A stretch of 64,000 bases of DNA from positions 1 through 64,000 of the IMG/VR virus record IMGVR_UViG_3300006752_006525; one strand, given 5' to 3'. This DNA comes from a virus. The notes below the pieces were generated by a model, which made no database searches, was not told the DNA's origin, and saw only the letters and a list, made by a program, of their open reading frames with translations. A program made the translations under genes and the position numbers. The stretch's first letter is position 1. Each line of letters begins with the position of its first letter. Below, in pieces: positions 8,126 through 46,276 of this stretch.

Positions 8126-8254
8126 TTATTCAGGCCACATATTTTGAGCAACGACCTCAAGACGCCCTTGCTTCATCATGGTATCAAATTTTCTAAAGTA
8201 GTCCAATGCTAATCGATGAGTTGCACTGGCTACTATTCCTATGGATTTCGCCAT
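8126..8254 (-). CDS. Small protein, 42 aa (MAKSIGIVASATHRLALDYFRKFDTMMKQGRLEVVAQNMWPE)
   Basis: AGGAGA RBS, own late promoter at 8362-8369, fills the intergenic gap. Confidence 0.65.
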   Translation of the reverse strand: MAKSIGIVASATHRLALDYFRKFDTMMKQGRLEVVAQNMWPE

Positions 8255-8318
8255 TTCAGTCTCCTATGTATGACACAATGTACCACAAAGCACCAGTAAC
8301 GTCAACTCTAATGAGTAC

Positions 8319-8362
8319 TGTTACAATCGGGCAACTTAAATGTTACAATCGTGTTACAGAAT
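8319..8362. promoter_or_regulatory. 11-bp-phased direct repeats TGTTACA (OmpR/PhoB-family-like operator)
   Basis: TGTTACAATCG at 8319 and 8341, TGTTACAGAAT at 8352. Confidence 0.5.
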
Positions 8363-8369
8363 ATTTATC
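8362..8369 (-). promoter_or_regulatory. Late promoter GATAAATA
   Basis: Motif match upstream of the 42-aa ORF. Confidence 0.6.
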
Positions 8370-8470
8370 ATTAACACAGTGTTTATTAACTGATTATAGA
8401 ATGACTTTCAAAAAGGTTGACAAACACCAGAAAAATGCTACAATGTTGTTTTATTAATATAAGTATCAGT

Positions 8471-8689
8471 ATGAAGAAAAGCACTACGCAAATGACAAAG
8501 TCTGAATTGATAGAAACTATCAAAAACAAAGATATACTTATAGCCGACCTCAACGATCGTATCGATGAGTTAGAGGGAATGGCAATAAGTAGTCAAGCGG
8601 TTCCTATGGATGCTGATGCAAGTAAATTGCTGACGTTGATGAATCAACGAATCCAAGCATTAGAGGAACAGATAAGTGAAAAAACCTAG
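8471..8689 (+). CDS. Coiled-coil hypothetical protein
   Basis: ORF; TATAAGTA 5 nt before ATG; sigma70 TTGACA..TACAAT near 8417. Confidence 0.55.
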   Translation: MKKSTTQMTKSELIETIKNKDILIADLNDRIDELEGMAISSQAVPMDADASKLLTLMNQRIQALEEQISEKT

Positions 8690-9065
8690 ACTAGTTTTCG
8701 TCTACGGAACTCTCAAAACCGGTAACACAACCAGAGGAATGCAATATTTCGAAGGTGCTGAGTTTGTGGGTGAAGGCATTACCTCGGATAACATACATGA
8801 CATCTTTGACTTGGGAAGTTTTCCTGCTGTCACAGAAGGCAAGTATAAAATCAAAGGAGAAGTATATGCTGTCGATGATGAAACATTTGAATACTTAGAT
8901 GCAATTGAAGGGTATCCAGATTTCTATAATAGGAAAAAAATATCAGTTAATATATCATCTGCTAAAGTAACAGCATATATGTATTTTATTGATAGGGTAA
9001 CCCTTTTGAATTCATACAAAACATCACCAGTAGGAGCAATTGGTGATACTAAGGAGTGGAATTAA
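8676..9065 (+). CDS. Gamma-glutamylcyclotransferase (AIG2-like)
   Basis: VFVYGTLK, GEVY, LDAIEGYP..Y.R motifs. Confidence 0.85.
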   Translation: MKKPRLVFVYGTLKTGNTTRGMQYFEGAEFVGEGITSDNIHDIFDLGSFPAVTEGKYKIKGEVYAVDDETFEYLDAIEGYPDFYNRKKISVNISSAKVTAYMYFIDRVTLLNSYKTSPVGAIGDTKEWN

Positions 9066-9761
9066 ATGGCTAAATTTAGATATAGAATTGAAGCAGGCAA
9101 CTACGGTGGTGAACTCACTGTCGGCGAAGTACCAGCAGAATTTGTTGAGTATTGGAAACATGAGGAGCAAGAAGACCTCATTGATCAAGTAATATCATTT
9201 GATGATATGGATGATGATGAACCTGAAGATGCATTAGAGAATCCTGATGGACCACCAATGGTAGACAATTACTGGCATGACATTGATGATCTAGAACATC
9301 AAAATGGTTGTTATTCAGATGGCAGTTGGACAGTTACACCTGTACCAACAGACGGTTCAGATGATTGGGCATACGAAGATTCAATCGAAGTTGAACCTAC
9401 TCACATGTACAGCAGAGAATGTTACAGTTCAGATGAGGTTGACGAAGAGTACGAAGATCAAACTGTGCCTGTGTTAGCATTTCACAGTTCAGAGAAAGGT
9501 ACATTTGCATGTTGGTTCTTGGATACCGATGAACAGTTTGATGCAGAGAAATTGAGATTTGGCAGTTGTGAAAGTGACCTTGCAGATCTTGTTGAAGCAG
9601 TTTACTACGGCAAAGAAGAACTTGAAGCAAACTATGATTACAATGACACAACTGGCAAGGCATACTATGCTCATGTTGGTTACGTGAATAGAAAGTGGCA
9701 TGACCCACTTGATCATTACACTGTTGAACAGTTAGAGGAAGATGGCTACTTTGACGAATGA
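9066..9761 (+). CDS. Acidic hypothetical protein
   Basis: 231-aa ORF with RBS AAGGAG. Confidence 0.6.
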   Translation: MAKFRYRIEAGNYGGELTVGEVPAEFVEYWKHEEQEDLIDQVISFDDMDDDEPEDALENPDGPPMVDNYWHDIDDLEHQNGCYSDGSWTVTPVPTDGSDDWAYEDSIEVEPTHMYSRECYSSDEVDEEYEDQTVPVLAFHSSEKGTFACWFLDTDEQFDAEKLRFGSCESDLADLVEAVYYGKEELEANYDYNDTTGKAYYAHVGYVNRKWHDPLDHYTVEQLEEDGYFDE

Positions 9762-10024
9762 GTATGTACGGCCATCCGGCTTACACTAGGTACCCACATT
9801 TGAAACCAGGCCCAACAGATGCCAAGTACACCAAGTGGCAAAAAGTATTTGCGTGGCGGCCCATTAAAACACTTAGTGAACAACGAGTGTGGCTTAAATA
9901 CGTGTACAGGAGAGAAAGGATTGTAGAATGGACACCTCCTCAATTTCCTGAAGGTGCATTTAATCGTGTTGAATACGAAACAGTTGAAAAAATAATAGAA
10001 CGAAAATTAGCAGGAACTAGTTAA
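9758..10024 (+). CDS. Hypothetical protein
   Basis: Translationally coupled ORF; W..FAWRP.K phage motif. Confidence 0.55.
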   Translation: MSMYGHPAYTRYPHLKPGPTDAKYTKWQKVFAWRPIKTLSEQRVWLKYVYRRERIVEWTPPQFPEGAFNRVEYETVEKIIERKLAGTS

Positions 10025-11067
10025 TGTTAAATGAATCCAGACGTGTATTCGATACAGTTGTTACAGAAGCGTCTGTAAAAGATAACGCTCACAAAGGCAC
10101 ACTTGAACTATCTATATACGGTGATAGTTTTGCTGATCCTACTAACACAGAAATGTGTGACCCAGACCATTTAGATGCTCAGCCGTGGCCTAGTTTATTA
10201 GCAGAATACTTTTTAGGAATGGCAGGTGCTGATCTGTCTGAAGAAGATTATGAAGACACTCTCAGAGGACATTCGTACAAAGGGCCTGTTGAAATAAAAG
10301 GTCGAGGTGGCACCAACCTATGGTGGTCACTTAATAACCTAATTGCTGACATCAACGAAACTGACGAAATTAAAAATGTAGTTTTTGTACACACAAATCC
10401 ACAACGTATTATTTCCCTGCTAGAACCAAATGAAACTAGGTCTTTCCTGTCACCGCAATTTGCACATATAGAAGACGAATTACAGGGTGAAGACAATATT
10501 CAAAATTATATAAATCTATTTTTCAAGTACAGCCACGATGTAATGTTAAATGACATGTTTGGACAAATGGTTTTTGATACTGTACAAAACTTGTCAAAAC
10601 AACACAACTTCAATTTAATTAATGTTATGCCATTTAGAAACTCTGGCCCTAGTATACCTTTCATGCCTGATGTTCCAGTAGTGGACGTAGAAAACAGAGC
10701 AGGACCAGTGATATCAGGATTGCAAAATATATGTTTTGGTGAAACTGGAACACCAAGTCGGTACATGAATAATGGTGACTTCCATGACTGTTGGCTACCA
10801 CCGCATAACGATGCTGATACAAAATGGGAGTTCCATGGCAGAGACTTGCGTTTGTGTCATATGAATATTGATAACAATAATCTGTTAGCACAGACAATAC
10901 TAGATCTTTTCAATCAAATGAAAGATGTTGATGTTGATCATGGCGGTAGTCCTATCATTGATTTATATCATCAGGGCAAATGGGTTAGCACCAAAGAAAA
11001 ATGGAATTACTATAATTCCGCAGAATGGATTGATAGTGTTTATGACTATGAGGGCAATAAACAATGA
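10024..11067 (+). CDS. SGNH/GDSL-like protein
   Basis: IYGDSFAD block I motif; distal H..N motif. Confidence 0.45.
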
Positions 11068-12182
11068 GAATTGAACGTGACGTAAAATTAGATTATGCTG
11101 ATGTACTGTTTAGACCTAAAAGAAGTGAAATAGGCAGTCGCAAGGACGTTGACTTAAACAGAGAATATAATTTTAGGAATAGCGGCAAAACGTACAGAGG
11201 TATTCCTATCATGGCCGCTAACATGGATGGTGTTGGTACATTTGATATGGCATTACCATTGGCTAAAAAAGGAATGTTTACCTGTTTAGCAAAAAGTTAT
11301 CAACCTGCAGAAATTTGGGATTGGTTAAATAATCATACTAACAAAGATGATTTGCGTCAAACAGTTGCAGTCAGCACAGGCATCACAGACATTGATCTCG
11401 AACGCATTGATAAAACATTATCACTCAGCAGATCTATTGACTATGTGTGTATTGATGTTGCTAATGGCTATTCAGAAAGATTTATAGATTTTGTTAAACG
11501 TTTTAGAGACAATCATCCTAATGTAACTATCATTGCAGGCAATGTTGTTACTCCGGATATCACAGAGGAGTTAATATTAAATGGAGCGGATATCGTTAAA
11601 GTGGGCATTGGCCCTGGTAGTGTTTGCACTACTCGGATTAAAACTGGTGTGGGCTATCCACAATTATCAGCAGTCATTGAATGTGCAGATGCCGCTCATG
11701 GTCTTGGCGGACACATCATCGCTGATGGCGGATGCAGTTCACCAGGTGACGTAGCAAAAGCATTTGGTGCTGGAGCAGACTTTGTGATGCTGGGCGGTAT
11801 GTTGTCAGGCACAGACGAAGGCGGTGGCGAAGTAATTACAAAAACTTTTATTACTGATGAACAAGCACCTAGCACAAGTGCAGGAGTAGGTAAAAAAGTT
11901 GAGAAACAATTTGTACAATTTTATGGTATGAGCAGTACCGCGGCACAGGAGAAACATGGTGGAACAAAAGAGTATAGAGCAAGTGAAGGCCGGGTGGTTC
12001 GTGTACCTTACAAAGGTCCTGTCGAATCCGTTATTGGAGACATTCTTGGCGGTCTCCGCAGTACTTGTACTTATGTTGGTGCAAAGAGTTTGAAAGAACT
12101 CAGCAAACGCACTACTTTTGTGCAAGTTAACAATGGCAAACAATTCAACACCACTTACGAACCATTTACTGTTGGTGAATAA
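11064..12182 (+). CDS. guaC: GMP reductase
   Basis: [51 protein letters not shown]. Confidence 0.95.
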
Positions 12183-12210
12183 TAGGTGTTTTAATAAATA
12201 AAATTAAATT

Positions 12211-13155
12211 ATGAGCATACAAGAAAATATTCAAAGGTACAACAGAGATCCTTCTCTGTCACCTTGGTTTCAAGAGAGACTCACAGATCTTATTTCTTAT
12301 GGAGTCTATCACAATAATATAGCAGATTTAAGTAGATCTGTTGTCAGCGAATTAGCAAAGTACAAAATCCAACATGGTATAGATAATATTGTACTTGGCA
12401 TGAGTGGCGGCATAGACAGTGCTGTTACTGCCGCACTATTCAAGAATGCTGGATGGAATGTTACAGGTGTAGTAATGCCTATACATCAAAATCCAGAAGA
12501 AACTAACAGAGGCATAGAAGCATGTAATGCATTAGGTATTAGAATGCTAAAGATTGACCTTACTGATGCCTTTGACAACTTAGTAGAATTTTATCAAAAC
12601 ACAGATGTTGACTTCCACAAAGAACTTGTTGGTGTTAACATGAAAGAACAAAATATTAGAAAGGGTAACATTCGAGCCAGACTTAGAATGATTACACTTT
12701 ATAATCTAGCAAGTAAACTAGGAGGTTGTGTGGCAAGTACAGATAACTTCTCAGAACTTGCGGCAGGGTTTTGGACATTGCATGGTGATGTTGGTGACGT
12801 CTCACCTATCCAAGCAATGACCAAGAGCTGGGAGATACCTGCGTTAGCAGAATATCTCGGAGTACCACAAAGCATTGTGGAGGCAAAACCTACAGACGGT
12901 TTAGGCATTGCCGACGGTGACGAGGACCAATTTGGTTTTAGTTACTTGGAGTTCGATATCGCTCTATTCTCTCTTATGAGGGGTGGAGTCGATATGGAAT
13001 CACTTAACGAGCAAGATAAAGCGATTGTTCAGGCTGTCGCTGACAGAGTGAGGAGTACTACTTACAAACGAGCAAATCCTTTCAATCTTGTACACCCGTT
13101 CGATAGTTCACGTTATGAGGACTTAGAACAATTAGATATATATCTTAGGAGTTGA
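12211..13155 (+). CDS. nadE: NH3-dependent NAD+ synthetase
   Basis: GMSGGIDSA PP-loop, NIRARLRM, GFWTLHGD, KPTDGL..DEDQ. Confidence 0.9.
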   Translation: MSIQENIQRYNRDPSLSPWFQERLTDLISYGVYHNNIADLSRSVVSELAKYKIQHGIDNIVLGMSGGIDSAVTAALFKNAGWNVTGVVMPIHQNPEETNRGIEACNALGIRMLKIDLTDAFDNLVEFYQNTDVDFHKELVGVNMKEQNIRKGNIRARLRMITLYNLASKLGGCVASTDNFSELAAGFWTLHGDVGDVSPIQAMTKSWEIPALAEYLGVPQSIVEAKPTDGLGIADGDEDQFGFSYLEFDIALFSLMRGGVDMESLNEQDKAIVQAVADRVRSTTYKRANPFNLVHPFDSSRYEDLEQLDIYLRS

Positions 13156-13157
13156 TT

Positions 13158-13469
13158 ATGGAAATTGTATTCATTATTGGTCTCTTAGTATTGGGTGGTG
13201 TTGTTTACTACTTTAACAAAGACAAAGGTCTTGACGTCAACAATGACGGAAAGGTTGATGTTGCTGATGTTAAAGAAGCAGTAGAAAATGCCAAGGCAGG
13301 CGTTAAAGCAGAAGTTAAAAAACTTCCTACACTTGCTAAACTCAAAGCACAAACTAAAGCACAACTTGAGGAATTAGGTCGTGATTTTGGTGTTGAGCTA
13401 GACAAGAGAAAAAACAAAGATACAATGATTGCCGATCTTAAAAAAGGCATCAAAGATCAAAAGAAGTAA
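13158..13469 (+). CDS. Membrane-anchored protein with EF-hand-like loop and HeH/Rho-N-like tail
   Basis: N-terminal TM; DVNNDGKVD; TKAQLEELGR..GVELDKR. Confidence 0.5.
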   Translation: MEIVFIIGLLVLGGVVYYFNKDKGLDVNNDGKVDVADVKEAVENAKAGVKAEVKKLPTLAKLKAQTKAQLEELGRDFGVELDKRKNKDTMIADLKKGIKDQKK

Positions 13470-13491
13470 TTCTTTTGTTTGCAAACATAAG

Positions 13492-13516
13492 AAGCCAGCT
13501 CTATGCTGGCTTTTTA
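13492..13516 (+). terminator. Rho-independent terminator
   Basis: AAGCCAGC-TCTAT-GCTGGCTT followed by T tract. Confidence 0.8.
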
Positions 13517-13538
13517 TTCTTTAACGTAAATACACTAT

Positions 13539-15008
13539 ATGAAAGTTTTAATTCTCAGTGAAAACACAGTGGGAACTGACCTGTATACCAGTAATACATA
13601 CAGAAATATAGGAGCCACAGATGTTGCTAGAAGACTCGATAGCAGAGGAATAGAGAACACCATAATTGATTGGTTCAGTCATTGGCCCAAAGACCTATTA
13701 CTAGATTCTATAATAACTTATCTTAAGGACTCTAAAGACCCAATTATTGCATTAAGTACGCCGTTTAGTAATCATGTAACTTATTCAATTGAGAACGTTT
13801 TGTTGCAGGTTAAGCAAGAAATACCACATGTCAAAATACTCCTTGGTGGCAATAGATACTTTGAAAAAGGACTCTTAAATTTAGTTGATTATTTCTTTGT
13901 TGGTCGCAGTATGGAGATATTTGAAGCATGGTTAGATGATGAGGACATGAGCAGGTTTGCTACACCTTATCCTAATGTGTTTATAAATCGCAACGTAGAT
14001 GTCAACATTGAGAAGCCTGTGATTGGTTACTTCAGAGACTGTGACTTTATCACTAGCAAGGACATTGTGGGATTTGAATTAGGTTTAGGTTGTAAATTTA
14101 ATTGTAGTTTTTGCAGTTTTGATTTGCGTAATACAAAAAATCCATTACTGCAACAATCTGAATATATAACTCAATTCATGGAACACATGAATAACAAGTA
14201 CGGTTCAGAACATTTTTATCTTGCTGATGACACCTGTAATGATGATACCCAAAAACTTAGAACACTGTTAGAAGTAAAAAACAATTTAGACTTTGATCCA
14301 AAGTTGGCCGGGTTTTTTAGGGTTGAACTGTTTGGTATGCAAGAACAACAAGAGCTTTGGGAACAATTAAAAATATCAGGTGTTAGTTTTGGTATTGAAA
14401 CTTTAGAAAGTAGCAGTGCAAAGTTGGCAAACAAAAGTGGTAACATACACAAGACAGTTGACATTCTCAAAAAACTAAAACAATTATCTCCTGAAACACT
14501 AATAAGCAGTGGAATAATTTTAGGTCTTAGAGGAGAAAGTGAACAAAGTTTTCTCAACAATATAAAACGTATAGCGGACGAAAAATTATTAGATGCATTG
14601 TATATCAGTGTACTGGAACTTGGCAAACCCAACAGTGATGTATATGACGATAACTATGTAAGCGATATGAGTGCTAACCCTGAAAAGTATGGTTACACAA
14701 TCACTGAAGAAGAAGATTTCAGAGTCAGTAAAAAATTAATGCATTGGAAGAACGAATGGACTGATTCTAAATCTGCACTCACAATCAGAGACAAGGCAGA
14801 TGCTTACTTGAGGTCTGTTAATTTTCCAACAGGGTTGAGTTCATTTGAATACTTGAACTTTATGGCGCATGGTGTTGTGAGTAATGTTCCTGACATGGTG
14901 GCATACACACAACAAATTAAAAAGCGATCTCTGAGTGTTGCAAAAAAGATTCGCAAACAATATTTCACTCAAAAGTCAGAATGGTTCAAAAATAACCAGA
15001 AAACTTAA
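13539..15008 (+). CDS. Radical SAM protein with B12-binding-like N-terminal domain
   Basis: GCKFNCSFC (CxxxCxxC), ADDT, FGIET, IILGL.GE; GTAAATA 6 nt before ATG. Confidence 0.85.
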   Translation: MKVLILSENTVGTDLYTSNTYRNIGATDVARRLDSRGIENTIIDWFSHWPKDLLLDSIITYLKDSKDPIIALSTPFSNHVTYSIENVLLQVKQEIPHVKILLGGNRYFEKGLLNLVDYFFVGRSMEIFEAWLDDEDMSRFATPYPNVFINRNVDVNIEKPVIGYFRDCDFITSKDIVGFELGLGCKFNCSFCSFDLRNTKNPLLQQSEYITQFMEHMNNKYGSEHFYLADDTCNDDTQKLRTLLEVKNNLDFDPKLAGFFRVELFGMQEQQELWEQLKISGVSFGIETLESSSAKLANKSGNIHKTVDILKKLKQLSPETLISSGIILGLRGESEQSFLNNIKRIADEKLLDALYISVLELGKPNSDVYDDNYVSDMSANPEKYGYTITEEEDFRVSKKLMHWKNEWTDSKSALTIRDKADAYLRSVNFPTGLSSFEYLNFMAHGVVSNVPDMVAYTQQIKKRSLSVAKKIRKQYFTQKSEWFKNNQKT

Positions 15009-15035
15009 CTGATGTTTTAACTATTGATAAATAGA

Positions 15036-15217
15036 TGTTGGAAGGTAGGGCACTTCCCTTCCACAACAATGTAAATGTTGATGCCTCGGGCTATTATGCC
15101 TACACTATGTATGTGTATGAGGGTCTACAAAAGTTAAGGAACTTTTTTTACACTGAGCTGTGCTCGTAAGAGGCAGTGAACGAAGTTGCTAAATTTAATT
15201 TAGGACTGGAGAATAAC
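15036..15217 (+). ncRNA. Candidate structured leader RNA (about 180 nt) after late promoter GATAAATA
   Basis: Nested helices TGTAAA/TTTACA, CCTC/GAGG, GGC/GCC, TACAC/GTGTA, AAAGTT/AACTTT, CACTG/CAGTG with CTC-GTAA-GAG; 5' hairpin GTTGGAAGG/CCTTCCACAAC. Confidence 0.45.
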
Positions 15218-15379
15218 ATGACAACCTTGACAAAGGTTGCTCACTCAATCACCGATACCTGGAACGAGTTCAAAGACCGCGTCTGCAACGACGGACACTT
15301 TTGCGATGATATTGCAATGGGTTTTTTGAGTCTAACTACGGCATGGATGATGTGGGTGGCTATGCAACCAATTATGTAA
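15218..15379 (+). CDS. Small membrane protein, 53 aa
   Basis: GGAGA RBS; C-terminal hydrophobic helix; hairpin downstream. Confidence 0.6.
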   Translation: MTTLTKVAHSITDTWNEFKDRVCNDGHFCDDIAMGFLSLTTAWMMWVAMQPIM

Positions 15380-15440
15380 CAAAAAACACTCGTGGTTCAC
15401 TTCCGTGGGCCACAACCTAACTCAGGATATAAATATCAGT

Positions 15441-15833
15441 ATGTCATCATTAGAAGAATACAATGCTCAAGCATTGCCAATTGATAATCCAAACGATTAT
15501 GTCGCTTGGTTAAACTCCATATCAGATGGAGTACTTACTAAAGTTACAGCAAGAAATGAAGAAGACTATGTAGCAGGTTGTAGTTCACCTGTATGGATTA
15601 CAGGTGCTAAGAATGCTGATGGTACATTTAGTTTTACTTTTCTTTCCGACAGTAAGTTTGTTAATGGCATTGGTAAAATACTCACAGACGTTTACGGTAA
15701 CAAAACTAAACAAGAGATTTTACAAGTTAAATTTAGAGATTTTGACAATATAACAAGATTTTTATTGTTTGAAAGAAAACGATCATTTCAAAAATTCATC
15801 AATAAAATATACAGTATTGCACTTAGTGATTGA
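15441..15833 (+). CDS. sufE: SufE-like sulfur acceptor
   Basis: VAGCSSPVW, SDSKFVNGI motifs; TATAAATA 5 nt before ATG. Confidence 0.7.
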   Translation: MSSLEEYNAQALPIDNPNDYVAWLNSISDGVLTKVTARNEEDYVAGCSSPVWITGAKNADGTFSFTFLSDSKFVNGIGKILTDVYGNKTKQEILQVKFRDFDNITRFLLFERKRSFQKFINKIYSIALSD

Positions 15834-15884
15834 CATACTTAACAAATTGTTATACAATTAACTTTTAACAAACAGGTAATAAAA

Positions 15885-16475
15885 ATGAATTTTGTCCCAT
15901 ACGTAATTGAAAAAACAAGTGCAGGAGAGCGTAGTTACGATATCTACAGCAGACTGCTAAAAGAAAGAATTGTATTTCTCAACGGAGAAGTCAATGATGC
16001 AGTAAGTAATAGCATTTGTGCTCAGTTACTATTCCTAGAAGCAGATGATCCAGACACAGACATCAACTTCTATATCAATTCACCTGGGGGTGTTGTAACA
16101 GCAGGTATGGCAATGTATGACACAATGCAATACATCAAGCCAGAAGTATCGACTATTGTAATGGGACAAGCGGCCAGCATGGGTTCATTCCTTGCTAACG
16201 CAGGTGCACCAGGTAAACGTTTTATGTTACCAGGAGCAAGGCACATGATTCATCAACCATTAGGTGGTGCTCAAGGACAAGCAAGTGATATTGAAATACG
16301 TGCTAAAGAGATTGTGCGTATCAAACGTGAACTCACAGAAGCATACGTTAAGCACAACACTGCTGGTAAAACATACGAAGAGTTTGAATCAGCAATGGAT
16401 CGTGATAACTTTATGACTGCCCAAGAAGCATTAGACTTTGGCCTTGTAGACGAAATCATTACCAAGCGAATTTAA
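15885..16475 (+). CDS. clpP: ClpP protease subunit
   Basis: [22 protein letters not shown] (catalytic Ser), MIHQP, DRDNFM. Confidence 0.97.
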
Positions 16476-16520
16476 TTCACATACTATATAAACAATGCTT
16501 TAATTGTGTTAAATAGTAGT

Positions 16521-16886
16521 ATGGAGATTAAAACATTTGATCCTAACCAGGATCTAGTAACCCTAACAGAAAGTGCCCAACAACACTTTCTTGCTCAAAC
16601 AGAAGGTGCTGATGCTATTGGCATTAAGTTAAGTTTGACTGGCGGAGGTTGTGCAGGTTTTATGTACGACTGGAAATTGATCAGCGATATATCAGACATC
16701 AACTTAACAGACTACAGCAAAGAATACAACGGTTGGACATTTTATTTAGACACGTTAAGTAAACAGTATCTAGCAGGCAGTACCATAGAATTGGTCACAG
16801 GCATTGCTGGACAACACATAGAAATCAAAGCACCATTAGCAGACAGTGCATGTGGTTGCGGGGAATCAGTAACATTTAGCATATGA
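16521..16886 (+). CDS. iscA: A-type Fe-S carrier (IscA/SufA/ErpA)
   Basis: GGGCAGF and CGCGES; TAAATA 5 nt before ATG. Confidence 0.85.
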   Translation: MEIKTFDPNQDLVTLTESAQQHFLAQTEGADAIGIKLSLTGGGCAGFMYDWKLISDISDINLTDYSKEYNGWTFYLDTLSKQYLAGSTIELVTGIAGQHIEIKAPLADSACGCGESVTFSI

Positions 16887-24599: not shown

Positions 24600-24628
24600 T
24601 CGATAAATAGTGTTACACAGGAGAATAC

Positions 24629-32722: not shown

Positions 32723-32855
32723 GTGTTTCGAATGTGGCGTAACAGTAATGCTAGGCCTAATAAAATATCATACAGCAGATAAGACAAAAGTTTTCTGTGG
32801 TGCTGAATGTAGTGTAAAGTATCACGCAAAGCAAAGGAGCGATAAAAACAAATGA
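32712..32855 (+). CDS. Small Zn-finger protein (47 aa)
   Basis: CFEC...FCGAEC; coupled to dnaJ and clpA. Confidence 0.5.
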
Positions 32856-35047
32856 GTAAAAGTCCTACAGTAGAATTAATCATGCGTGATGCAATGAATA
32901 ATGCATCTAAGCAGAAGCACGAATATGTATGCTTAGAACATATCATGTATGTACTACTTGAAAATGATGACGTTATAGAAGTATGTGAGAAGAGTGATAT
33001 CGACAGAGATCAAATCCTCACAGATCTTTCTAACTATCTAAATGATCCAGATTCAAATGGATTACAAAATCCAAACGGCTCCAAAGGTGGACCTAAGAAA
33101 ACACAGGCTGTTGAAAGAGTATTACAACGAGGACTAGCCAATGTGTTGTTTAACAACAGAGAATATTTTGTCCCAATGGATTTGTTATTGAGCATATTAT
33201 CTGAGGATAATTGCATGGCAAGATATCTATGTGAGATCAATGGCTTGACAAATGAAGTTGTTAAGCATCATTTACGAACCTCACGTAACAATGAAGAAAG
33301 CAAAGAGTTGTTGGAAGAGTTTACAACTAACCTCAATGAAGAAGCCAAGAGCAGTAAGATTGATCCACTGATTGGTAGACATGAAGAAGTCAGCGACCTA
33401 GTACACATTCTTGCAAGACGTAAGAAAAATAATTGTGTAATGGTTGGTGAGCCTGGTACAGGTAAGACTGCTATTGCAGAAGGACTTGCTAAGAAGATTG
33501 TTGATGGAGAAGTACCTAAAACTCTCAAGAACAAAGTGGTATACAGTTTAGACTTGGGTGCTATGTTAGCAGGTACTAGATACAGAGGTGACTTTGAAGA
33601 ACGTATTAAAGGAGTACTTAATGTACTAGAAGCAGACCCAAATGCCATATTGTTTATTGATGAGATACACATGATTATGGGAGCAGGTGCAGGTGGACAA
33701 GGTAATGTCGATGCCGCTAATTTGCTAAAGCCTGTGTTAGGCAGAGGCACAATGCTTACAATAGGTGCTACAACACCAGACGAGTTTGCAGATACTTTTG
33801 AGAAGGATAGAGCATTACTTAGACGTTTTGCAAGACTAGACATTGAAGAAACTTCTGTAGAGGACACAAAACTAATTGTACTTGGATTGAAAAAGTATTA
33901 CGAAGACTTCCATTGTGTTACATACAACAACGAATTATTAGAACGCAGTGTTGATTTAGTTGACAGGTATCACAAAACAAAACACTTCCCAGACAAAGCA
34001 ATTGATGTTATCGATGCCGCTGGAGCCGCTGTTAAGTTGCGTGATGAAACACTAGTACAGATGTCAGACTTTGTGAAAGTAATTGCTAAAGTAAGTAAAA
34101 TTGGTGAAGATGTTATTGACACTGAAAGCACAAATGCATACAAAGATTTAGATGACAGAATTAAAAATACTGTTTATGGACAAAACGAGGCTGTAGATAA
34201 AATTGTAGAAGCCATTCTTGTAAGTAAATCAGGATTGAGAGAACCTCACAAACCAATTGGCAGTTTCTTGTTTGTAGGTCCAACTGGCACAGGTAAAACA
34301 GAAACAGCAAGAGCACTGGCAAAAGAGTTACAGGCAAAACTGGTCAAGTTTGATATGAGTGAATATCAAGAGAGACACAGTGTTGCTAAATTGATTGGTG
34401 CTCCTCCTGGATATGTTGGACATGCTGAAGGTAAGATGGGACAAGGACAACTTATTGCCGCAGTAGAAGATTCACCTAATTGTGTGTTGCTGTTAGACGA
34501 AGTAGAAAAAGCCGCACCACAGGTATTGCAAGTATTGTTACAAGTAATGGACGATGGTAAACTTACTGGCAGTATGGGCAAAGAAGTAGACTTCAGTAAT
34601 GTAGTATTATTAATGACTTCTAACTTAGGTGCCGCAGAAGCAGAATCTAAAAAGATTGGGTTTGGTGATCAAACAAAAACAAAAGCAGTTGACAAGGCTG
34701 TAGAAAAATTCTTTACACCAGAGTTTAGAAACAGATTGGATTCTGTTGTTAAATTTAACAAACTAGAACCTGAGCAAATGTTACTGATCGTAGATAGATT
34801 GCTCAAAGAGACAAACGAACTACTACAAACAAACAATTCAACTGTGAGTATTTCGTTAACTGAAAGTGCTAGACAACAATTATCTTTAGATGGTTATGAA
34901 CCAAGCATGGGTGCAAGACCGTTGAAGAGAATATTTGAAGAGAAAATTAAAAAGCCTTTAAGTAAAAAGATATTGTTCGAAGACTTGGAAAATATTACTA
35001 TCACAGTTGATTGGAATGAAAGTGAAACCTACTATTTCAACACATGA
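32852..35047 (+). CDS. clpA: ClpA-type AAA+ chaperone
   Basis: Clp N-domain, two Walker A motifs (GEPGTGKT, GPTGTGKT), IGF ClpP-docking loop, no ClpB middle domain. Confidence 0.92.
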   Translation: MSKSPTVELIMRDAMNNASKQKHEYVCLEHIMYVLLENDDVIEVCEKSDIDRDQILTDLSNYLNDPDSNGLQNPNGSKGGPKKTQAVERVLQRGLANVLFNNREYFVPMDLLLSILSEDNCMARYLCEINGLTNEVVKHHLRTSRNNEESKELLEEFTTNLNEEAKSSKIDPLIGRHEEVSDLVHILARRKKNNCVMVGEPGTGKTAIAEGLAKKIVDGEVPKTLKNKVVYSLDLGAMLAGTRYRGDFEERIKGVLNVLEADPNAILFIDEIHMIMGAGAGGQGNVDAANLLKPVLGRGTMLTIGATTPDEFADTFEKDRALLRRFARLDIEETSVEDTKLIVLGLKKYYEDFHCVTYNNELLERSVDLVDRYHKTKHFPDKAIDVIDAAGAAVKLRDETLVQMSDFVKVIAKVSKIGEDVIDTESTNAYKDLDDRIKNTVYGQNEAVDKIVEAILVSKSGLREPHKPIGSFLFVGPTGTGKTETARALAKELQAKLVKFDMSEYQERHSVAKLIGAPPGYVGHAEGKMGQGQLIAAVEDSPNCVLLLDEVEKAAPQVLQVLLQVMDDGKLTGSMGKEVDFSNVVLLMTSNLGAAEAESKKIGFGDQTKTKAVDKAVEKFFTPEFRNRLDSVVKFNKLEPEQMLLIVDRLLKETNELLQTNNSTVSISLTESARQQLSLDGYEPSMGARPLKRIFEEKIKKPLSKKILFEDLENITITVDWNESETYYFNT

Positions 35048-40161: not shown

Positions 40162-40173
40162 TAGGAGATTTGC

Positions 40174-42207
40174 GTGGCTTTGATTAACTACAAGTCTAGT
40201 CAAATTAAACTTAACTATCCAAATAAAGTATTGGCAGTTAATGTAACAAGCATTGCTGGTAGAGACTACTGGCAACATGCCAACGGTTCCAGCGACCCTT
40301 GGTACTCAGGTTCAAGTTCTCCAAAGTATTATCGTTGGGAAATCACATTCACTGTAACTGCACAAGGACACGGTTCTCACTTAACCAGAGATGATAGAAC
40401 ATACAACGGTTTAGATATTGTTGTAGGTGATTGGGTAGGCAGTGCAACAGCAGGTATTTGTTGTAAAGTAATCAGCATCACAAGTAAAACTTCCACAGAA
40501 GTAAGTTGTATTGTAGAAGATTGGTTACGTTATAATACTTTTGCAAACTCCACAGGTAATGGTATATTTGGTTTAGGTTCAGCCGCAGTGTTCTCATTGA
40601 ATGAGAATGGTGTGCCAATGCTTGATCCTCTACCAACCACAGTATCCAGTTCATTCTATGCAACTGTGATGAGTAGATTCCAATACTTAAATCCGCAAAC
40701 AAACTATGTGTTAGAACAAACAGCACACGGTTTTGACAAAGGTGATGTTGTAGTAGTTACCAGTAGTGGATTCTCAAAAGCAAATTCAACTACATTAAGT
40801 AAAAGTATTGGTGTGGTAACAGAGCCTGGTCCAGGACCAGATCAGTTTATGATATTACCTAACAACAGGATCATTGACTTTGAACCACGCATACCAGGAA
40901 CACAAGGCCAATATGTTTATGTAGACACTGATGGTGACTTAACAACCAGCGAAACAGATGCCCCAACATTTTTAGTTATACAACCTGCAATAGAAACTTT
41001 ACTAGAAGGTGACCAAGATGGTCCTGAGATACCTCATGGACATACTGTAACAATAAATGGTTACGACACAGTTATCAGTGCAGGAGCAGGTTCAGGTAAT
41101 GCAAACGTAAGTGAAATAGTTTCAAGCATTAACAGTCACACTGCAAATCATAATGTTGTAGCAAGTACAGTTGCAACAAAGACTGTGATAAATTCAGACC
41201 CAAGTGGTACAGTGTACGGACTCGTAGGTGGCTTTACGCCATTCAGTGCCGCAATAGATAGTGGTAGTGGTAACACAACAATTAATTTTACAACCAATGC
41301 CGCAGGTCAAGCCGCATACAGTCAAGCAGTTGCTATTCCACAAGACATGGCAACAGACATTAATGCCGCTGGTATTGCAAACTTAACTGCTACATATAAT
41401 TCAGGTACATTAACATTAACAGAAACAAATGGTAATGCTGTTACTATAGTTAATGTAACCAATGATTCTAACAATAATCCTTATGTTGGTGCTGGTAATA
41501 TATCAGGTTTGCCAGCAAGTGTAGCCGCACCTGGAACAGAACGTATTAATCTCACACGCAGTGACGGTGGTGAGATATTAATTTTTGAAAGCACAGAATT
41601 CTTTAGAGTGAACACAGGTATTGCAAGTGGACACACAGGAATGTATCCATTAGCACTCAACGTTGAACAAGGTATCAGAGGTGGTACTGTTAAAGTGGTT
41701 GCAGATGTCAGTGCAAGAAATGCATTGAATGCACAGGTTGGTGACCAGGCACATGTATTAAGTGCCGACGATGGTGAATGGGCACTGTACTTATATGATG
41801 GTTCAAGTTGGGTTAAGATATCTGACAGAGATAGCAGTACAACAGATGCTAGAACACTCACAACAACATTCACAATGCCAGTGGGTGGCTTTGGTGTTAG
41901 CACAACAAACTTACTTGGTAACATATCACCCGGTGGTAAAATTGTTAGTGTTGCTGTAGAAATTAACACAACATTCTCAGGACACAGTGGTGGTGAACCA
42001 AACATTGAAGTTGGTACACTAGCAGACCCAGATGTGTATTGTGACTCACCAAGTAATGACTTAACTGAAAGTGCAGGTGACACTTTCTTATGTCAACCAG
42101 AGTATGTGTGGCCTTCAACACAGACACAAGATTTAGAAGTGAGAGCACGTTGTAATCACTACAATGCAAGTGCTGGAAGTGTCACTGTCATATTAACATA
42201 CGTTTAA
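40174..42207 (+). CDS. Virion structural protein with shared C-terminal domain
   Basis: 677 aa, GTG start with AGGAG RBS; C-terminus homologous to 1..1077. Confidence 0.65.
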   Translation: MALINYKSSQIKLNYPNKVLAVNVTSIAGRDYWQHANGSSDPWYSGSSSPKYYRWEITFTVTAQGHGSHLTRDDRTYNGLDIVVGDWVGSATAGICCKVISITSKTSTEVSCIVEDWLRYNTFANSTGNGIFGLGSAAVFSLNENGVPMLDPLPTTVSSSFYATVMSRFQYLNPQTNYVLEQTAHGFDKGDVVVVTSSGFSKANSTTLSKSIGVVTEPGPGPDQFMILPNNRIIDFEPRIPGTQGQYVYVDTDGDLTTSETDAPTFLVIQPAIETLLEGDQDGPEIPHGHTVTINGYDTVISAGAGSGNANVSEIVSSINSHTANHNVVASTVATKTVINSDPSGTVYGLVGGFTPFSAAIDSGSGNTTINFTTNAAGQAAYSQAVAIPQDMATDINAAGIANLTATYNSGTLTLTETNGNAVTIVNVTNDSNNNPYVGAGNISGLPASVAAPGTERINLTRSDGGEILIFESTEFFRVNTGIASGHTGMYPLALNVEQGIRGGTVKVVADVSARNALNAQVGDQAHVLSADDGEWALYLYDGSSWVKISDRDSSTTDARTLTTTFTMPVGGFGVSTTNLLGNISPGGKIVSVAVEINTTFSGHSGGEPNIEVGTLADPDVYCDSPSNDLTESAGDTFLCQPEYVWPSTQTQDLEVRARCNHYNASAGSVTVILTYV

Positions 42208-42307
42208 TACTTTTCCCTTAATTTAGATAAATATACATAACGTTTAGCTCTTATGGCTGGATGTTATCGATAACACGCAAAAAATACGTATTATATAGGA
42301 GATATAA

Positions 42308-45300
42308 ATGGCTGACATTAAGAACTTTGGTATAAAGGGTCTATCGTCAGACGTCCAACTCGGTAAGGGTGGCGGTAAAGTCAAATATGATTCTAGTAAT
42401 AACAGATTCGACCTCACGCAGTCGGATGGTTCAACACTAGAAAATTTAAGACTTGGCGCGATCACTGCAGGTGCATGGACGGCAACAGCAATTGGTACGC
42501 AATATGGTGGTTTAGGACTTGACGGTTCCTCTTCAACTGGTATTGCAACGTTCTCATCTGGTACGGCTAGTATTGGTACAATCGATCTAAGCGATTCAGG
42601 CTTAGTTGATGCATCTTCGCAACTTCCAGTTGCACAAGGTGGTACTGGTGCAAGTACAGCAGGTGGAGCAAGAACTAACTTAGGGTTAGGTTCAATTGCA
42701 ACGCAAGACTCAAACAATGTTGCTATTACAGGTGGTGCTTTAGATAGCACCGTCATCGGCGGTAGTACGGCGGCGGCAGGTAGTTTCACAACTATTAATG
42801 CTTCCGGTGCAATCACAGGTAACTTAACAGGTACAGCAGATGATGCTGATGGCCTATCAAGTGCTGTTACAGTTGGTCTTTCAGGAGACGCAACAGGTAC
42901 AGCAACTTTTCAAGATGCTGGTGATACCGCAACAATTTCCACAACTTTAGCCACTGTTAACAGTGATGTAGGATCATATGGTAGTTCAACTGCTATTCCT
43001 GTACTCACAGTTAATGCTAAAGGTTTAGTTACAGCAGTAAGTACTGCTAGTATCTCAACAAGTTGGACAATTAGCGATGGCTCAAACACTTCTTCAATTG
43101 ACGGTGGCGATACTTTAACGGTATCAGGTACTGCAAACGAAGTAGATGTTGTTGTAAGCGGCGACTCATTAACAATCGGTTTACCTAACGATGTAACAAT
43201 AGGTAACAACTTGACAGTAACTGGTTCATTCCTTTCGGATGACATTACAGCGGCACAGGTAAGTGTTGCAGGTGATGCAGTTATTACAGGTAACTTAACA
43301 GTACAAGGAACTCAAACAACAGTTAATTCGACAACAGTTGAAACTGCTGATGCAATTTTCCGTGTAAACAGTAATGGTACAACAGGTACTGACGTAGGTT
43401 TCGAAGCCAACGTTGGTGGCACTGCAAAGCAAATTGTTTATACAGGTGCTGGTAGTAAGTGGAGTGTAGGCTCCGAAACTTTTGTAGCGGCAACGTTCGA
43501 AGGTGATGTAACTGGTGATGTAACTGGTGATGTAACAGGTAATGTTACAGGTAACTTAACTGGTGATGTAACTGGTGATGTAACTGGTGATGTAACTGGT
43601 AATGCAGATACAGCAACAACTTTAGCGAATGCTAGAACAATAACAATAGACGGTGATGTAGATGCAACTGCTACTGCTTTTGATGGTAGTCAGAACATTA
43701 CATTAACAACTACACTTGATAACACAGGTGTTACAGCGGCTAGTTATGGTTCTGCTTCACTAGTTCCAGTATTAACTATTGATGCAAAAGGACGAGTAAC
43801 ATCTGCTAGTACAGCGGCTATTACAACTTCTTTCACATTAGCAGGTGATACAGGTACGCAACTTGTTGAAGGTGGAGACACAGCAACAATAGCAGGTGGT
43901 ACTAACATCACTACAGTAGCAAGTGCAACTGATACTTTAACAGTTAATCTAGATCCAAATATTAGTTTAACAAACGTTACTACATCAGGTGGCATTTTCA
44001 CTGATGACATCTACGAGCAAACTACTAATGCAGGTATTACTTTTGGACATGACGTCAATGGTGGTGCGGCAACATTTAGTGGTACAGTAACTGGTGGTAC
44101 ATTAACTGACGGCACATTAAGTGCTTCAAGTGGTGCAATCACAGGTGCTACAACAATCACTGCAAGTGGTGCAATCACTGGTGGTAGTTTAACAGACGGT
44201 ACTGCTACATTAAGTAGTGGTGCATTAACAGGTGCAACTAACGGTACATTTAGTGGTACAGTAACTGGTGGTACATTAACTGATGGCACATTAAGTGCAA
44301 GTTCAGGTGCTATTACAGGTGCTACAAATATCACAGCAAGTGGTACTGTTCAGTATGGTTCATTAAGTGATGGTTCAATCACAGTTACTGGTTTTGTCGA
44401 TGAAGACAACATGGCTAGTGACAGTGCAACACTTATCCCAACGCAACAATCTGTTAAAGCATACGTCGACGCAGTTGCAACAGCGGCTGACTTAGACTTC
44501 CAAGGTGATGACGCAACTGCTTTAAGTATTGATCTTGATAGTGAAGTACTTACAATCGCAGGTGGAACTGGTCTAACAACAGCAGGTAGTGGTAACACTC
44601 TTACTGTTAACTTAGACAACACAGCAGTAAGTGCTGGATCATATGGTAGTTCAACTGCTATTCCAACATTTACAGTTGATGCACAAGGACGTATTACAAA
44701 TGCCTCTACAGCGGCAATTAGTACTTCTTGGACATTAAGTGATGGTTCCAATACACAAACTATCGATGGTGGTGATACTTTAACAGTATCAGGTACTACT
44801 GGCGAAGTTGATGTAGCGGTTAGTGCAACAGATACATTAACAATTGGTTTACCAAGCGATGTAACAATCGGTAATGACTTAACAGTTACTAACGACTTAA
44901 CAGTATCAGGTACACTTAACTCGGATGATATTACATCTGCAACAGTTAGTGTGTCAGGTGATGCAGTTATTTCTGGTAACTTAACAGTTAACGGTACACA
45001 AACTATTGTTAATTCAACAACAGTTCAAACAGAAGATGCTATCTTCAGAACAAACAGTGGCGGTGCTAATACTGATGCTGGTTTTGAAGCAAACACAGCA
45101 AGTGGTGTAAAACAAATTCTTTACACAGCGGCTGGTACAGAATGGGACTTCGGTTCTGAGAATGTAAAAGCAAGTACGTTTGAAGGTAACTTAACAGGTG
45201 ACGTAACAGGTGACACAACAGGTGCTCACAATGGTACAGTTGGTGCAACAACACCAGCAACTGGTGCATTTACTACAATTAATGCTTCAGGTACAATTAC

Positions 45301-45937
45301 TGGTGATGTAACTGGTGATTTAACTGGTGACGTAACTGGTGATGTAACAGGTGATGTAACTGGTGATTTAACTGGTGATGTTACAGGTAGCATCAGTGGT
45401 GCAACTGGTACGTTTACAGGCGCAGTAAGTTTTGGTACATTAACAGATTCAGGTGAGAGCATTGCAATCACTAAGTTTGTTGATGAAGCAGATGGCATTG
45501 GCAACAACGACAATGACACTACTATTCCAACTTCAGCGGCAGTTGTTGATTATGTTGCAACAAATGGTGGTGACGGACTATTACTTAGACAAGCATTGAC
45601 ATCAGGTAGTGCAACTATCGATACAAGTGCTATGCCTAACATTAGTAGCAGAACTTACTATGCACAAAAAATTGTAATTAAGATTGGAACAGCATTTAGT
45701 GGCGGTTCTTTCAACCATATTCTTGTTAAAGAGAATGGTGGTAGTGGAACAGTATTAGTAGCGGCTGATGACGCAGATGCGGCAACAGCAGGTACTTACA
45801 TCATCGAGTTAGATGGTGATGCGGCACTTACAAAGAATGCGGCTGTACAAGTACAGTTCATGCAGGCAGACAGTAGCACAGCGGCTACAACTACTGCAGG
45901 TTCAGGTACAATCTCAGTACATTACAACTATGTCTAA
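42308..45937 (+). CDS. Long fibre/surface virion protein with internal duplications
   Basis: G/T/S/A-rich; duplicated DDIT..GNLTV.GTQT..AIFR module; GDVT repeats; GATAAATA at 42226 and a 12-bp leader hairpin. Confidence 0.75.
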   Translation: MADIKNFGIKGLSSDVQLGKGGGKVKYDSSNNRFDLTQSDGSTLENLRLGAITAGAWTATAIGTQYGGLGLDGSSSTGIATFSSGTASIGTIDLSDSGLVDASSQLPVAQGGTGASTAGGARTNLGLGSIATQDSNNVAITGGALDSTVIGGSTAAAGSFTTINASGAITGNLTGTADDADGLSSAVTVGLSGDATGTATFQDAGDTATISTTLATVNSDVGSYGSSTAIPVLTVNAKGLVTAVSTASISTSWTISDGSNTSSIDGGDTLTVSGTANEVDVVVSGDSLTIGLPNDVTIGNNLTVTGSFLSDDITAAQVSVAGDAVITGNLTVQGTQTTVNSTTVETADAIFRVNSNGTTGTDVGFEANVGGTAKQIVYTGAGSKWSVGSETFVAATFEGDVTGDVTGDVTGNVTGNLTGDVTGDVTGDVTGNADTATTLANARTITIDGDVDATATAFDGSQNITLTTTLDNTGVTAASYGSASLVPVLTIDAKGRVTSASTAAITTSFTLAGDTGTQLVEGGDTATIAGGTNITTVASATDTLTVNLDPNISLTNVTTSGGIFTDDIYEQTTNAGITFGHDVNGGAATFSGTVTGGTLTDGTLSASSGAITGATTITASGAITGGSLTDGTATLSSGALTGATNGTFSGTVTGGTLTDGTLSASSGAITGATNITASGTVQYGSLSDGSITVTGFVDEDNMASDSATLIPTQQSVKAYVDAVATAADLDFQGDDATALSIDLDSEVLTIAGGTGLTTAGSGNTLTVNLDNTAVSAGSYGSSTAIPTFTVDAQGRITNASTAAISTSWTLSDGSNTQTIDGGDTLTVSGTTGEVDVAVSATDTLTIGLPSDVTIGNDLTVTNDLTVSGTLNSDDITSATVSVSGDAVISGNLTVNGTQTIVNSTTVQTEDAIFRTNSGGANTDAGFEANTASGVKQILYTAAGTEWDFGSENVKASTFEGNLTGDVTGDTTGAHNGTVGATTPATGAFTTINASGTITGDVTGDLTGDVTGDVTGDVTGDLTGDVTGSISGATGTFTGAVSFGTLTDSGESIAITKFVDEADGIGNNDNDTTIPTSAAVVDYVATNGGDGLLLRQALTSGSATIDTSAMPNISSRTYYAQKIVIKIGTAFSGGSFNHILVKENGGSGTVLVAADDADAATAGTYIIELDGDAALTKNAAVQVQFMQADSSTAATTTAGSGTISVHYNYV
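43502..43603 (+). repeat. 12-nt tandem repeat GGTGATGTAACT (GDVT)
   Basis: About 8 units. Confidence 0.9.
45302..45388 (+). repeat. 12-nt tandem repeat (GDVT/GDLT)
   Basis: About 7 units. Confidence 0.9.
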
Positions 45938-45953
45938 TTAATTTTAGATAACT

Positions 45954-45983
45954 AAAAAGGGCAGTTTAACTGCCCTTTTTTTT
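45954..45983. terminator. Bidirectional rho-independent terminator
   Basis: AAAAAGGGCAG-TTTAA-CTGCCCTTTTTTTT between convergent genes. Confidence 0.9.
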
Positions 45984-45986
45984 GAC

Positions 45987-46136
45987 TTAAGGATAGAAAG
46001 GATTATCTGTGATATACTTAGGCCACTCTGTTCTTTTCTCCACAGTGGGGAAACTCAAAGTTGACACTCTTTTTACTTTCTTAAGTTGTTTTTGTACAGC
46101 ACGTCGAACGAGTACTGTCTCTTGATACTTAGTCAT
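45987..46136 (-). CDS. Riboswitch-controlled basic 49-aa peptide (MTKYQETVLVRRAVQKQLKKVKRVSTLSFPTVEKRTEWPKYITDNPFYP)
   Basis: AGGAGA RBS 5 nt before ATG; ends at the terminator; absent from the ORF track. Confidence 0.75.
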   Translation of the reverse strand: MTKYQETVLVRRAVQKQLKKVKRVSTLSFPTVEKRTEWPKYITDNPFYP

Positions 46137-46157
46137 GTCATTCTCCTATCGGAAAAT

Positions 46158-46206
46158 GCGTTCCTTCGGCTTCATTGCCTACTTCCGTCCTTTACAGGAT
46201 GAACGT
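46158..46206 (-). ncRNA. Glutamine-I (glnA-motif) riboswitch aptamer 2
   Basis: ACGUUCA-[UCCU GUAA AGGA]-CGGAAGUA-[GGC AAUGAA GCC]-GAAGGAACGC. Confidence 0.85.
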
Positions 46207-46212
46207 AACAAT

Positions 46213-46262
46213 GCGTTCCTTCGTCACTATTGACTACTTCCGCCCAATGATTGGGTGAACGT
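46213..46262 (-). ncRNA. Glutamine-I (glnA-motif) riboswitch aptamer 1
   Basis: ACGUUCA-[CCCAA UCA UUGGG]-CGGAAGUA-[GUCA AUAG UGAC]-GAAGGAACGC. Confidence 0.85.
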
Positions 46263-46268
46263 ATAAAA

Positions 46269-46276
46269 TATTTATC
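46269..46276 (-). promoter_or_regulatory. Late promoter GATAAATA directly upstream of the riboswitch
   Basis: Motif 6 nt before aptamer 1. Confidence 0.7.

Follow-up and report, generated by a model that had tools for sequence, protein, structure and literature searches.

The first 64 kb of a 97-kb viral record (IMG/VR record IMGVR_UViG_3300006752_006525), hereafter called the window, contain three small units of similar layout: a promoter-like motif GATAAATA, a long non-coding leader, a strong Shine-Dalgarno (SD) sequence and an open reading frame (ORF) of 42-53 amino acids (aa). We refer to them as U1 (8126-8369, minus strand), U2 (15026-15379, plus strand) and U3 (45987-46276, minus strand). 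The initial annotation of this DNA had read them as one set of nutrient-sensing microprotein switches that tune late infection. The question raised by the locus is therefore whether the three units constitute one sensing system or three independent elements of common design. In our view, they are probably separate, portable late-gene cassettes ('morons') residing in one clade of uncultured marine T4-related jumbo phages, and their leaders are of differing kind.

Each cassette travels with its own promoter and leader through many marine viral contigs. When leaders and ORFs were compared across these contigs, as the initial annotation had proposed, the leaders were conserved and so were the ORFs, all three families of which are under purifying selection (median ratio of nonsynonymous to synonymous substitution rates, dN/dS, of 0.50 for U1, 0.23 for U2 and 0.38 for U3). 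The genes on either side vary from locus to locus, each cassette is found in further contexts as well, and U3 is inverted at the same junction in relatives; from this, portability of the cassettes can be deduced. No similarity was found among the three leaders or among the three peptides. None of the peptides had a match in Pfam or PHROGs, and their scores in the ESM Atlas stayed below 0.9 and gave no lead. Among GenBank phages, there was no DNA match to U1 or U2, the only DNA match of U3 was to the flanking ferredoxin gene, and no credible peptide match was obtained for U1, U2 or U3.

Late-type promoters and the common layout

The window encodes a T4-type DNA polymerase, a clamp loader, tail-fibre and virion proteins, ClpP and a Clp-type ATPase. 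The closest polymerases, at about 42% identity, belong to T4-related jumbo phages of 350-490 kb (Atu_ph07, Phosso, XbC2 and Serratia BF). Judging from these genes, we read the source phage as an uncultured marine jumbo myophage related to T4. The 97-kb record was rated about 27% complete by CheckV.

T4 late promoters consist of TATAAATA, which is read by gp55/gp33 together with the sliding clamp. We found 10 copies of the similar element GATAAATA in the window, against 3.6 +/- 2.0 expected (10 copies were reached in 0 of 100 shuffles). All 10 are intergenic and oriented toward a downstream gene with an SD, and several of those with short leaders sit upstream of virion and tail-fibre genes. Because of this enrichment, orientation and position before structural genes, and because the phage possesses a T4-like polymerase and clamp loader, GATAAATA fits a T4-type late promoter, an assignment made by analogy with the T4 paradigm. 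As in T4, it is a lone eight-base, -10-like element preceding structural genes, and the phage has T4-like genes for replication. It differs from the T4 element in that its first base is mostly G and that TGTAACA or GTTACA is often present 1-3 nucleotides (nt) downstream. This post-promoter element, in the form of (T)TGTAACA, GTTACA or a partial TTGTAAT, lies 1-3 nt after GATAAATA at 24602, 29112, 35680, 36292 and 8369 (minus strand), and it follows most late promoters in the window. It may represent a clade-specific extended promoter or an initial-transcript element.

As the initial annotation had stated, GATAAATA precedes all three units, and their long leaders stand out: U1, U2 and U3 have leaders of 107, 184 and 132 nt, respectively, whereas those at the seven other GATAAATA sites measure 19, 19, 21, 25, 33, 34 and 74 nt. 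Equally, a strong SD (AGGAGA or GGAGA) is located 5-7 nt before the start codon in each unit, and the ORFs encode 42, 53 and 49 aa. In the remainder of the record (64001-97319), no further long-leader late cassette was found. The shared design is real, and each unit would be organised as follows: a T4-type late promoter, (G/T)ATAAATA, is followed by a hairpin within a few nt of the presumed transcript start, then by a structured leader that is conserved, a strong SD and a microprotein gene that is likewise conserved. It must be borne in mind that we infer late timing, transcript starts and translation for all three units, and this weighs against the scheme as a whole. Coordinates of all elements are collected in Table 1.

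Table 1. Elements of the three cassettes in the window, with position, strand and supporting evidence.
Element	Position	Strand	Evidence
U1 late-type promoter GATAAATA	8362-8369	-	motif scan
U1 hairpin A: two UGUAACA copies, UGU-A-ACA pairing, 4-nt loop, ~4 nt past promoter	8341-8358	-	RNAalifold
U1 hairpin B: outer stem GUAAC/GUUAC, purine-rich internal loop, inner NNC-AWUA-GNN	8296-8324	-	covariation
U1 SD AGGAGA	8260-8265	-	in all loci
U1 ORF P0001, 42 aa	8126-8254	-	protein family
U2 late-type promoter GATAAATA	15026-15033	+	motif scan
U2 H1, 5'-terminal hairpin GGAAGG...CCUUCC	15040-15062	+	3 pairs with compensatory changes
U2 P1, 5' strand (loop of H1)	~15052-15059	+	pseudoknot
U2 P1, 3' strand	15182-15190	+	pseudoknot
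U2 P2, closing the three-way junction with H2 and H3	15067-15072 with 15150-15155	+	5/6 pairs compensatory
U2 three-way junction, whole	15067-15155	+	
U2 H2, variable apical insert	15079-15126	+	8/8 pairs compensatory
U2 H3, AAAAGUU-AAGG-AACUUUU	15129-15147	+	invariant in 18 distinct sequences
U2 H4, bulged 7-bp stem with GNRA tetraloop (GUAA/GCAA/GAGA/GUGA)	15158-15176	+	6/7 pairs compensatory
U2 H5, small hairpin just before SD	15189-15203	+	swaps CUAAA/UUUAG, CUAUA/UAUAG, CAAAAG/CUUUUG
U2 SD GGAG	15208-15211	+	
U2 ORF P0003, 53 aa	15218-15379	+	family comparison
U2 hairpin H6 over codons 2-8, 7 bp	15222-15239	+	12/14 ORFs
U3 late-type promoter GATAAATA	46269-46276	-	motif scan
U3 glutamine aptamer 1 (RF01739)	46210-46263	-	54.5 bits, gathering score 35
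U3 glutamine aptamer 2 (RF01739)	46155-46207	-	61.8 bits, gathering score 35
U3 expression platform: 3' tail of aptamer 2, CAUUUUCC, pairs with GGAGAAUG	46139-46158	-	16 variants
U3 SD AGGAGA	46142-46147	-	
U3 ORF P0002, 49 aa	45987-46136	-	33 viral loci, family alignment
Bidirectional intrinsic terminator shared by U3 and the convergent tail-fibre gene	45954-45980	both	terminator analysis

U3, a predicted glutamine riboswitch cassette

The glutamine aptamers noticed in U3 by the initial annotation are genuine: both exceed the gathering score of the glutamine-I riboswitch family (glnA RNA, RF01739) and span its full model (positions 1-53 of 53). Relatives of the U3 peptide were present in 33 other viral contigs, each with one or two RF01739 aptamers directly upstream. 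The promoter motif (G/T)ATAAATA lies upstream of the aptamers in 32 of these 33 loci, and the 33rd ends at the contig edge. Common to the peptides are MTKYQ at the start, a basic helix and the C-terminal sequence YITDNPFYP, which is invariant. When 1.84 billion representatives were searched with a profile, 30 clusters were returned, and nearly all full-length matches were 41-69 aa long.

The aptamers are linked to the downstream gene by a hairpin between the 3' tail (GCAUCU) and the SD region. This hairpin was found in all 16 distinct tail-to-ATG segments, with compensatory changes of both length and sequence; for example, the pair CAUUUUCC/GGAGAAUG of the window corresponds to CAAUCU/AGAUUG in the related contig L017. 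Sequestration of the SD by the 5' arm of aptamer 2 was also considered; such pairing is possible in the window, but the UCCU anti-SD is not conserved among relatives. In Synechocystis, experiments showed that the same aptamer class in front of gifB acts as a translational ON switch, the 3'-end nucleotides otherwise pairing with the ribosome-binding site (RBS) (PMC6212724). Because the aptamer tail of U3 pairs with the SD, as in gifB (PMC6212724), and covaries with it, we predict that U3 is likewise a glutamine-ON translational switch. If glutamine is absent, the SD would be paired with the 3' tail of the last aptamer; with glutamine bound, the aptamer would take up the tail, and the freed SD would allow the basic 49-aa peptide to be translated.

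As for the peptide itself, no match to Pfam DUF4278 (IF17/IF7) was obtained for P0002 at E<=0.01, nor for any of 19 family members at E<=5. Since a DUF4278/IF17 signal is lacking, a role as glutamine-synthetase inhibitor is suggested by mere analogy with the cyanobacterial system; here as elsewhere, we infer switch directions and peptide functions.

In several relatives (L003, L005, L018, L023 and L030-L035), U3 is placed between tail-fibre and 2-oxoglutarate (2OG)-oxygenase genes in an orientation inverted with respect to the window (45937-46609), and the window has an additional ferredoxin gene at this junction. Many relatives (among them L003, L009, L014 and L029) also possess an extra UGUAAC-N5-GUUACA hairpin about 10-30 nt past the promoter, before aptamer 1. 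This hairpin, absent from U3 of the window, resembles the 5' element of U1.

U2, a candidate orphan riboswitch

The initial annotation had described the U2 leader as a multi-stem RNA, and covariation backs this description. Twelve relatives (two viral, ten metagenomic) provided the structure and the initial covariation counts, and further members were found by a covariance model built from this first set and by a core-pattern scan, giving a final set of 21 instances, 18 of them distinct. The fold is 155-200 nt long and comprises a 5'-terminal hairpin (H1), a three-way junction (P2, H2, H3), a GNRA-capped stem (H4), a small hairpin before the SD (H5) and a pseudoknot (P1) formed by the H1 loop and a strand downstream of H4 (Table 1). 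In the 11 loci measured, GATAAATA lies 5-6 nt before H1, and it is directly upstream in all later ones. All 21 instances have GATAAATA upstream, an SD and a homologous small membrane ORF.

The final alignment contains 18 distinct sequences. Its paired cells amount to 96.6%, compared with 43-50% in controls with slid partners, and 25 of 41 pairs are changed on both sides, against 2-9 in the controls. The covariation score of 0.50 (controls <=0.09) was reached by 0 of 500 shuffles. Whole helices have been rewritten, for example P2 from CAAUGU/ACAUUG to CGGG..GG/CCCCCG and H4 from UC/GA to AG/CU. The sequence of the junction strands is conserved. In L036, nt identity to the window is about 95% for the leader, about 75% for the ORF and 78.6% for the wider region. 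An outer CACUG/CAGUG helix considered for H4 is broken in L052 and L053 and was replaced by P2 and the bulged H4.

None of the 4227 families of Rfam 15 matched the U2 leader even at E<=10, and no copy of the core pattern was present in 185,579 species genomes; three matches in cellular genomes were chance matches to H3 alone. The features that mark a riboswitch class, namely a covariation-supported multi-helix fold in the 5' untranslated region (UTR) and conserved junction nucleotides, were found in U2. Taken together, the comparative data point to a new RNA family and a strong orphan riboswitch-like candidate.

Several points weigh against this interpretation. The minimum free energy of the leader is not unusual (z = -0.8); as its stability is not significant, the structure is visible from comparative data only. 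The alignment was partly fitted to the model, the last ten sequences having been found by the model or its pattern. P1 is the weakest helix of the fold: 86% of its cells pair, and duplexes of cognate loop and strand (-8.2 to -8.9 kcal/mol) show no consistent advantage over non-cognate duplexes. We regard this pseudoknot as moderately supported. Furthermore, the SD is not visibly sequestered in the conserved fold, and no conserved alternative pairing that could serve as an expression platform was found. A candidate for such an element is H6, a hairpin over the first codons of the ORF in which synonymous changes are confined to the loop.

MTT is invariant at the start of the U2 protein, a C-x5-C motif is usually present, and the C-terminal segment is hydrophobic. 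No terminator was found after its ORF, and the transcript probably reads on into SufE and ClpP. Consequently, the description of the units as stand-alone in the initial annotation does not clearly extend to U2. Just past the U2 stop codon, a hairpin at 15392-15413 (plus strand) covaries with L036 (GUGGU/GCCAC versus GAGGC/GCCUC) and lacks a U-run; its role may lie in transcript processing or stability between U2 and SufE. U2 of the window and of several relatives is flanked by a radical S-adenosylmethionine (SAM) enzyme gene on one side and SufE-ClpP-IscA on the other; other neighbours were observed elsewhere. Because neighbours vary, gene context gives no clue to a U2 ligand.

U1, a hairpin-leader cassette

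Viral loci recovered for U1 numbered 20 + 3. The promoter, leader and AGGAGA are kept at 24 loci, in all of which (G/C)ATAAATA occurs at -113 to -123 from the ATG. The peptide family (about 40-43 aa, at least 18 clusters of 40-42 aa) is near-invariant over its N-terminal ~30 aa (MAKSIGIVASATHRLALDYFKKFD..MK.G).

The phased repeats reported in the initial annotation are three TGTAACA copies at spacings of 11 and 22 nt. They belong to two simple hairpin elements: the first two copies can pair with each other as hairpin A, and the third copy is the 5' strand of hairpin B, in which 6 of 8 pairs show compensatory changes. The remainder of the leader is variable. In Rfam 15, only chance snoRNA matches (E 1.9-9.9) were obtained. 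From these comparisons, the U1 leader appears as a conserved structured 5' UTR that is not aptamer-like, and nothing points to metabolite sensing. It would most likely act as an mRNA-stability, translation or protein-binding element. One observation is against the RNA interpretation of hairpin A: all 6 of its 6 pairs are invariant among 19 sequences, making covariation neutral, and it could equally be a DNA site.

One relative, L038 (3079-3491, minus strand), carries a ~250-nt insertion inside the U1 ORF, which yields a 100-aa protein and a 26-aa remnant ORF. The 100-aa protein reuses the N-terminus of the U1 microprotein as a signal-peptide-like start. From the comparison with L038, the 42-aa ORF might be taken for the remnant of a deletion-fusion; L006-L008, 20 further loci and 18 clusters show that 42 aa is the norm.

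Divergent from U1, a near-consensus extended sigma70 promoter (TTGACA-16-TG-TACAAT) at 8417-8444 (plus strand) drives a 72-aa coiled-coil-like ORF from ~8471, followed by a GGACT-like gamma-glutamyl cyclotransferase gene (8676-9065).

Competing interpretations of the leaders

Most probably, the U2 leader would regulate how the small membrane protein is translated, the signal being either a ligand or a protein, and we consider the chances that it senses a small molecule or ion to be evenly balanced. The main rival, which has a sizeable but smaller share of our belief, is a protein-binding or structural 5' UTR, for example an autoregulatory operator resembling the leader pseudoknot of T4 gene 32, a stabiliser against RNase E or a translational enhancer. 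The position of H1, 5-6 nt after the promoter and hence at the 5' end of the transcript, would suit such an element, as would the unpaired SD, the 5' hairpin that opens all three cassettes, and the invariance of H3, which is expected of a protein recognition site. However, a pseudoknot, a three-way junction and a GNRA stem amount to ~41 conserved pairs, far beyond what a 5' stabiliser needs, and the junction strands show the sequence conservation seen in aptamers.

Carrying the sensor interpretation further, U2 might be a new riboswitch class restricted to marine jumbo phages, one that responds to a metabolite of the host or an ion late in infection and thereby regulates a tail-anchored C-x5-C membrane microprotein. 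Combined with U1 and with U3, whose peptide would be gated by glutamine, it might then form a phage sensing layer that reads host physiology and possibly times lysis or redirects metabolism. We offer this extended scenario tentatively and find it rather unlikely.

The proposal that all three leaders are metabolite sensors, joined in one coordinated nutrient-sensing network that tunes late infection via the microproteins, strikes us as improbable. It draws on the common architecture, the riboswitch-like complexity of U2 and the distribution of the cassettes: all three are present on one 92-kb relative, U2 and U3 on another, and U1 and U3 are convergent and only 47-57 nt apart in L006-L008 and one further contig. 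On the other hand, the U1 leader has neither a multi-helix junction nor a pocket-like conserved core, the leaders are mutually dissimilar in sequence and fold and so are the peptides, and the variable neighbours provide no gene association that would indicate a ligand for U1 or U2. The part of the nutrient-sensing claim that holds is confined to predicted nitrogen sensing by U3, through a bona fide glutamine riboswitch class, and to the complexity of U2; for U1, a sensing role is not supported, and the data indicate neither phosphorus nor any other ligand for U1 or U2. The cassettes belong to one phage clade and are sometimes clustered. Their co-occurrence across the clade and the adjacency of U1 and U3 nevertheless leave room for a functional link not detected here, which counts against treating them as fully separate.

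Still less probable, in our estimate, is that the U1 repeats are DNA operators, i.e. 11-bp-phased TGTAACA boxes bound by a response-regulator-like factor at the late promoter or at the divergent sigma70 promoter. The spacing of the boxes, the invariance of boxes 1 and 2 in 24 loci and the near-consensus promoter on the opposite strand speak for it. However, the boxes are situated downstream of the promoter, within the transcript, they move with the cassette to contexts without a divergent gene, and a single TGTAACA or GTTACA is found after most late promoters in the window. Moreover, box 3 covaries with its 3' partner as an RNA stem (GUAAC/GUUAC to UUGUA/UACAA and GUUGC/GCAAC). A Pho-box-like DNA reading of box 3 is contradicted by this covariation, while the invariant boxes 1 and 2 fit RNA or DNA.

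Finally, it is very improbable that the 5' part of U2 is a separate small RNA ending at H3 and its U-run, the ORF being expressed only via read-through: seven U residues do follow H3 in the window, but the H3 stem contains just one G-C pair, helices P2 and P1 bridge the U-run and covary, the U-run is missing from several members (only three U follow H3 in the L076/L077 group), and a terminator scan of the plus strand found none at H3.

Relation to known systems

Few riboswitches have been documented in phages, and the genes they regulate are mostly unclear. Glutamine riboswitches were described in Melnitz-like phages, pelagimyophages and T4-like cyanophages (PMC9004378; PMC9964418), and the statement of the initial annotation that it knew of no description of such a system was too broad in this respect. 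Because these phage-borne switches are already published (PMC9004378, PMC9964418), U3 is not a new kind of element; it is a well-defined, ordinary phage glutamine switch that adds to them. Like them, it combines RF01739 aptamers with a marine T4-related myophage. It differs in its target: in the published cases this was ssrA or was left open, whereas U3 has a defined conserved microprotein, a cassette extending from promoter to terminator, and a jumbo-phage clade as its carrier. No GenBank phage was hit by tblastn with the U3 peptide.

In cyanobacteria, the glutamine-I riboswitch controls gifB, encoding IF17 (PMC6212724; PMC2864571). U3 shares with the gifB switch the aptamer family, for which tandem arrangements are known, the short ORF downstream and the ability of 3' nucleotides to pair with the RBS; in contrast to gifB, it is placed on a phage late-type promoter and its peptide (MTKYQ...YITDNPFYP) has no DUF4278/IF17 signal. 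The Downstream-peptide motif (glutamine-II, RF01704) precedes short ORFs in marine picocyanobacteria (PMC2864571). The likeness to U3 consists in a glutamine aptamer directly before a conserved peptide ORF of 17-100 aa, but the aptamer class is another one, as the U3 aptamers score as RF01739. By tying a glutamine riboswitch to a defined peptide with an invariant C-terminal motif, U3 offers a handle on how phages use a nitrogen signal of the host.

The nearest counterparts of U2 are the orphan riboswitch candidates manA and wcaG of marine phages (PMC2864571), which are also structured, covarying 5' UTR motifs of marine T4-like phages. Unlike them, U2 matches no Rfam family and is tied to one small membrane-protein family, not to metabolic enzymes. 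The fold of U2, hitherto undescribed, is unusually well supported by comparative data and ready for ligand screening. If it is true that this RNA binds a metabolite, it would represent a new riboswitch class, so far present only in viral and metagenome contigs. More generally, movable units that join a late promoter to a structured leader and a microprotein have been assembled repeatedly in this clade, and genes of this class are overlooked by standard gene callers and annotation.

Further features of the window

An auxiliary gene set for iron-sulfur (Fe-S) clusters consists of an NfuA-like fusion, a B12-binding radical-SAM enzyme, SufE, an IscA/HesB-like protein and a 7Fe ferredoxin (7543-8124, 13539-15008, 15441-15833, 16506-16886 and 46281-46607 on the minus strand, respectively). 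Such breadth of Fe-S genes is unusual for a phage. The phage ClpP (15885-16475) shows 90-99% aa identity among relatives, whereas the adjoining genes reach only ~65-75%. The Clp-type AAA+ ATPase is encoded apart from ClpP, at 32852-35047. Four transfer RNA genes (Arg-ACG, Arg-TCT, Leu-TAA and Met-CAT) are located within 49125-51753.

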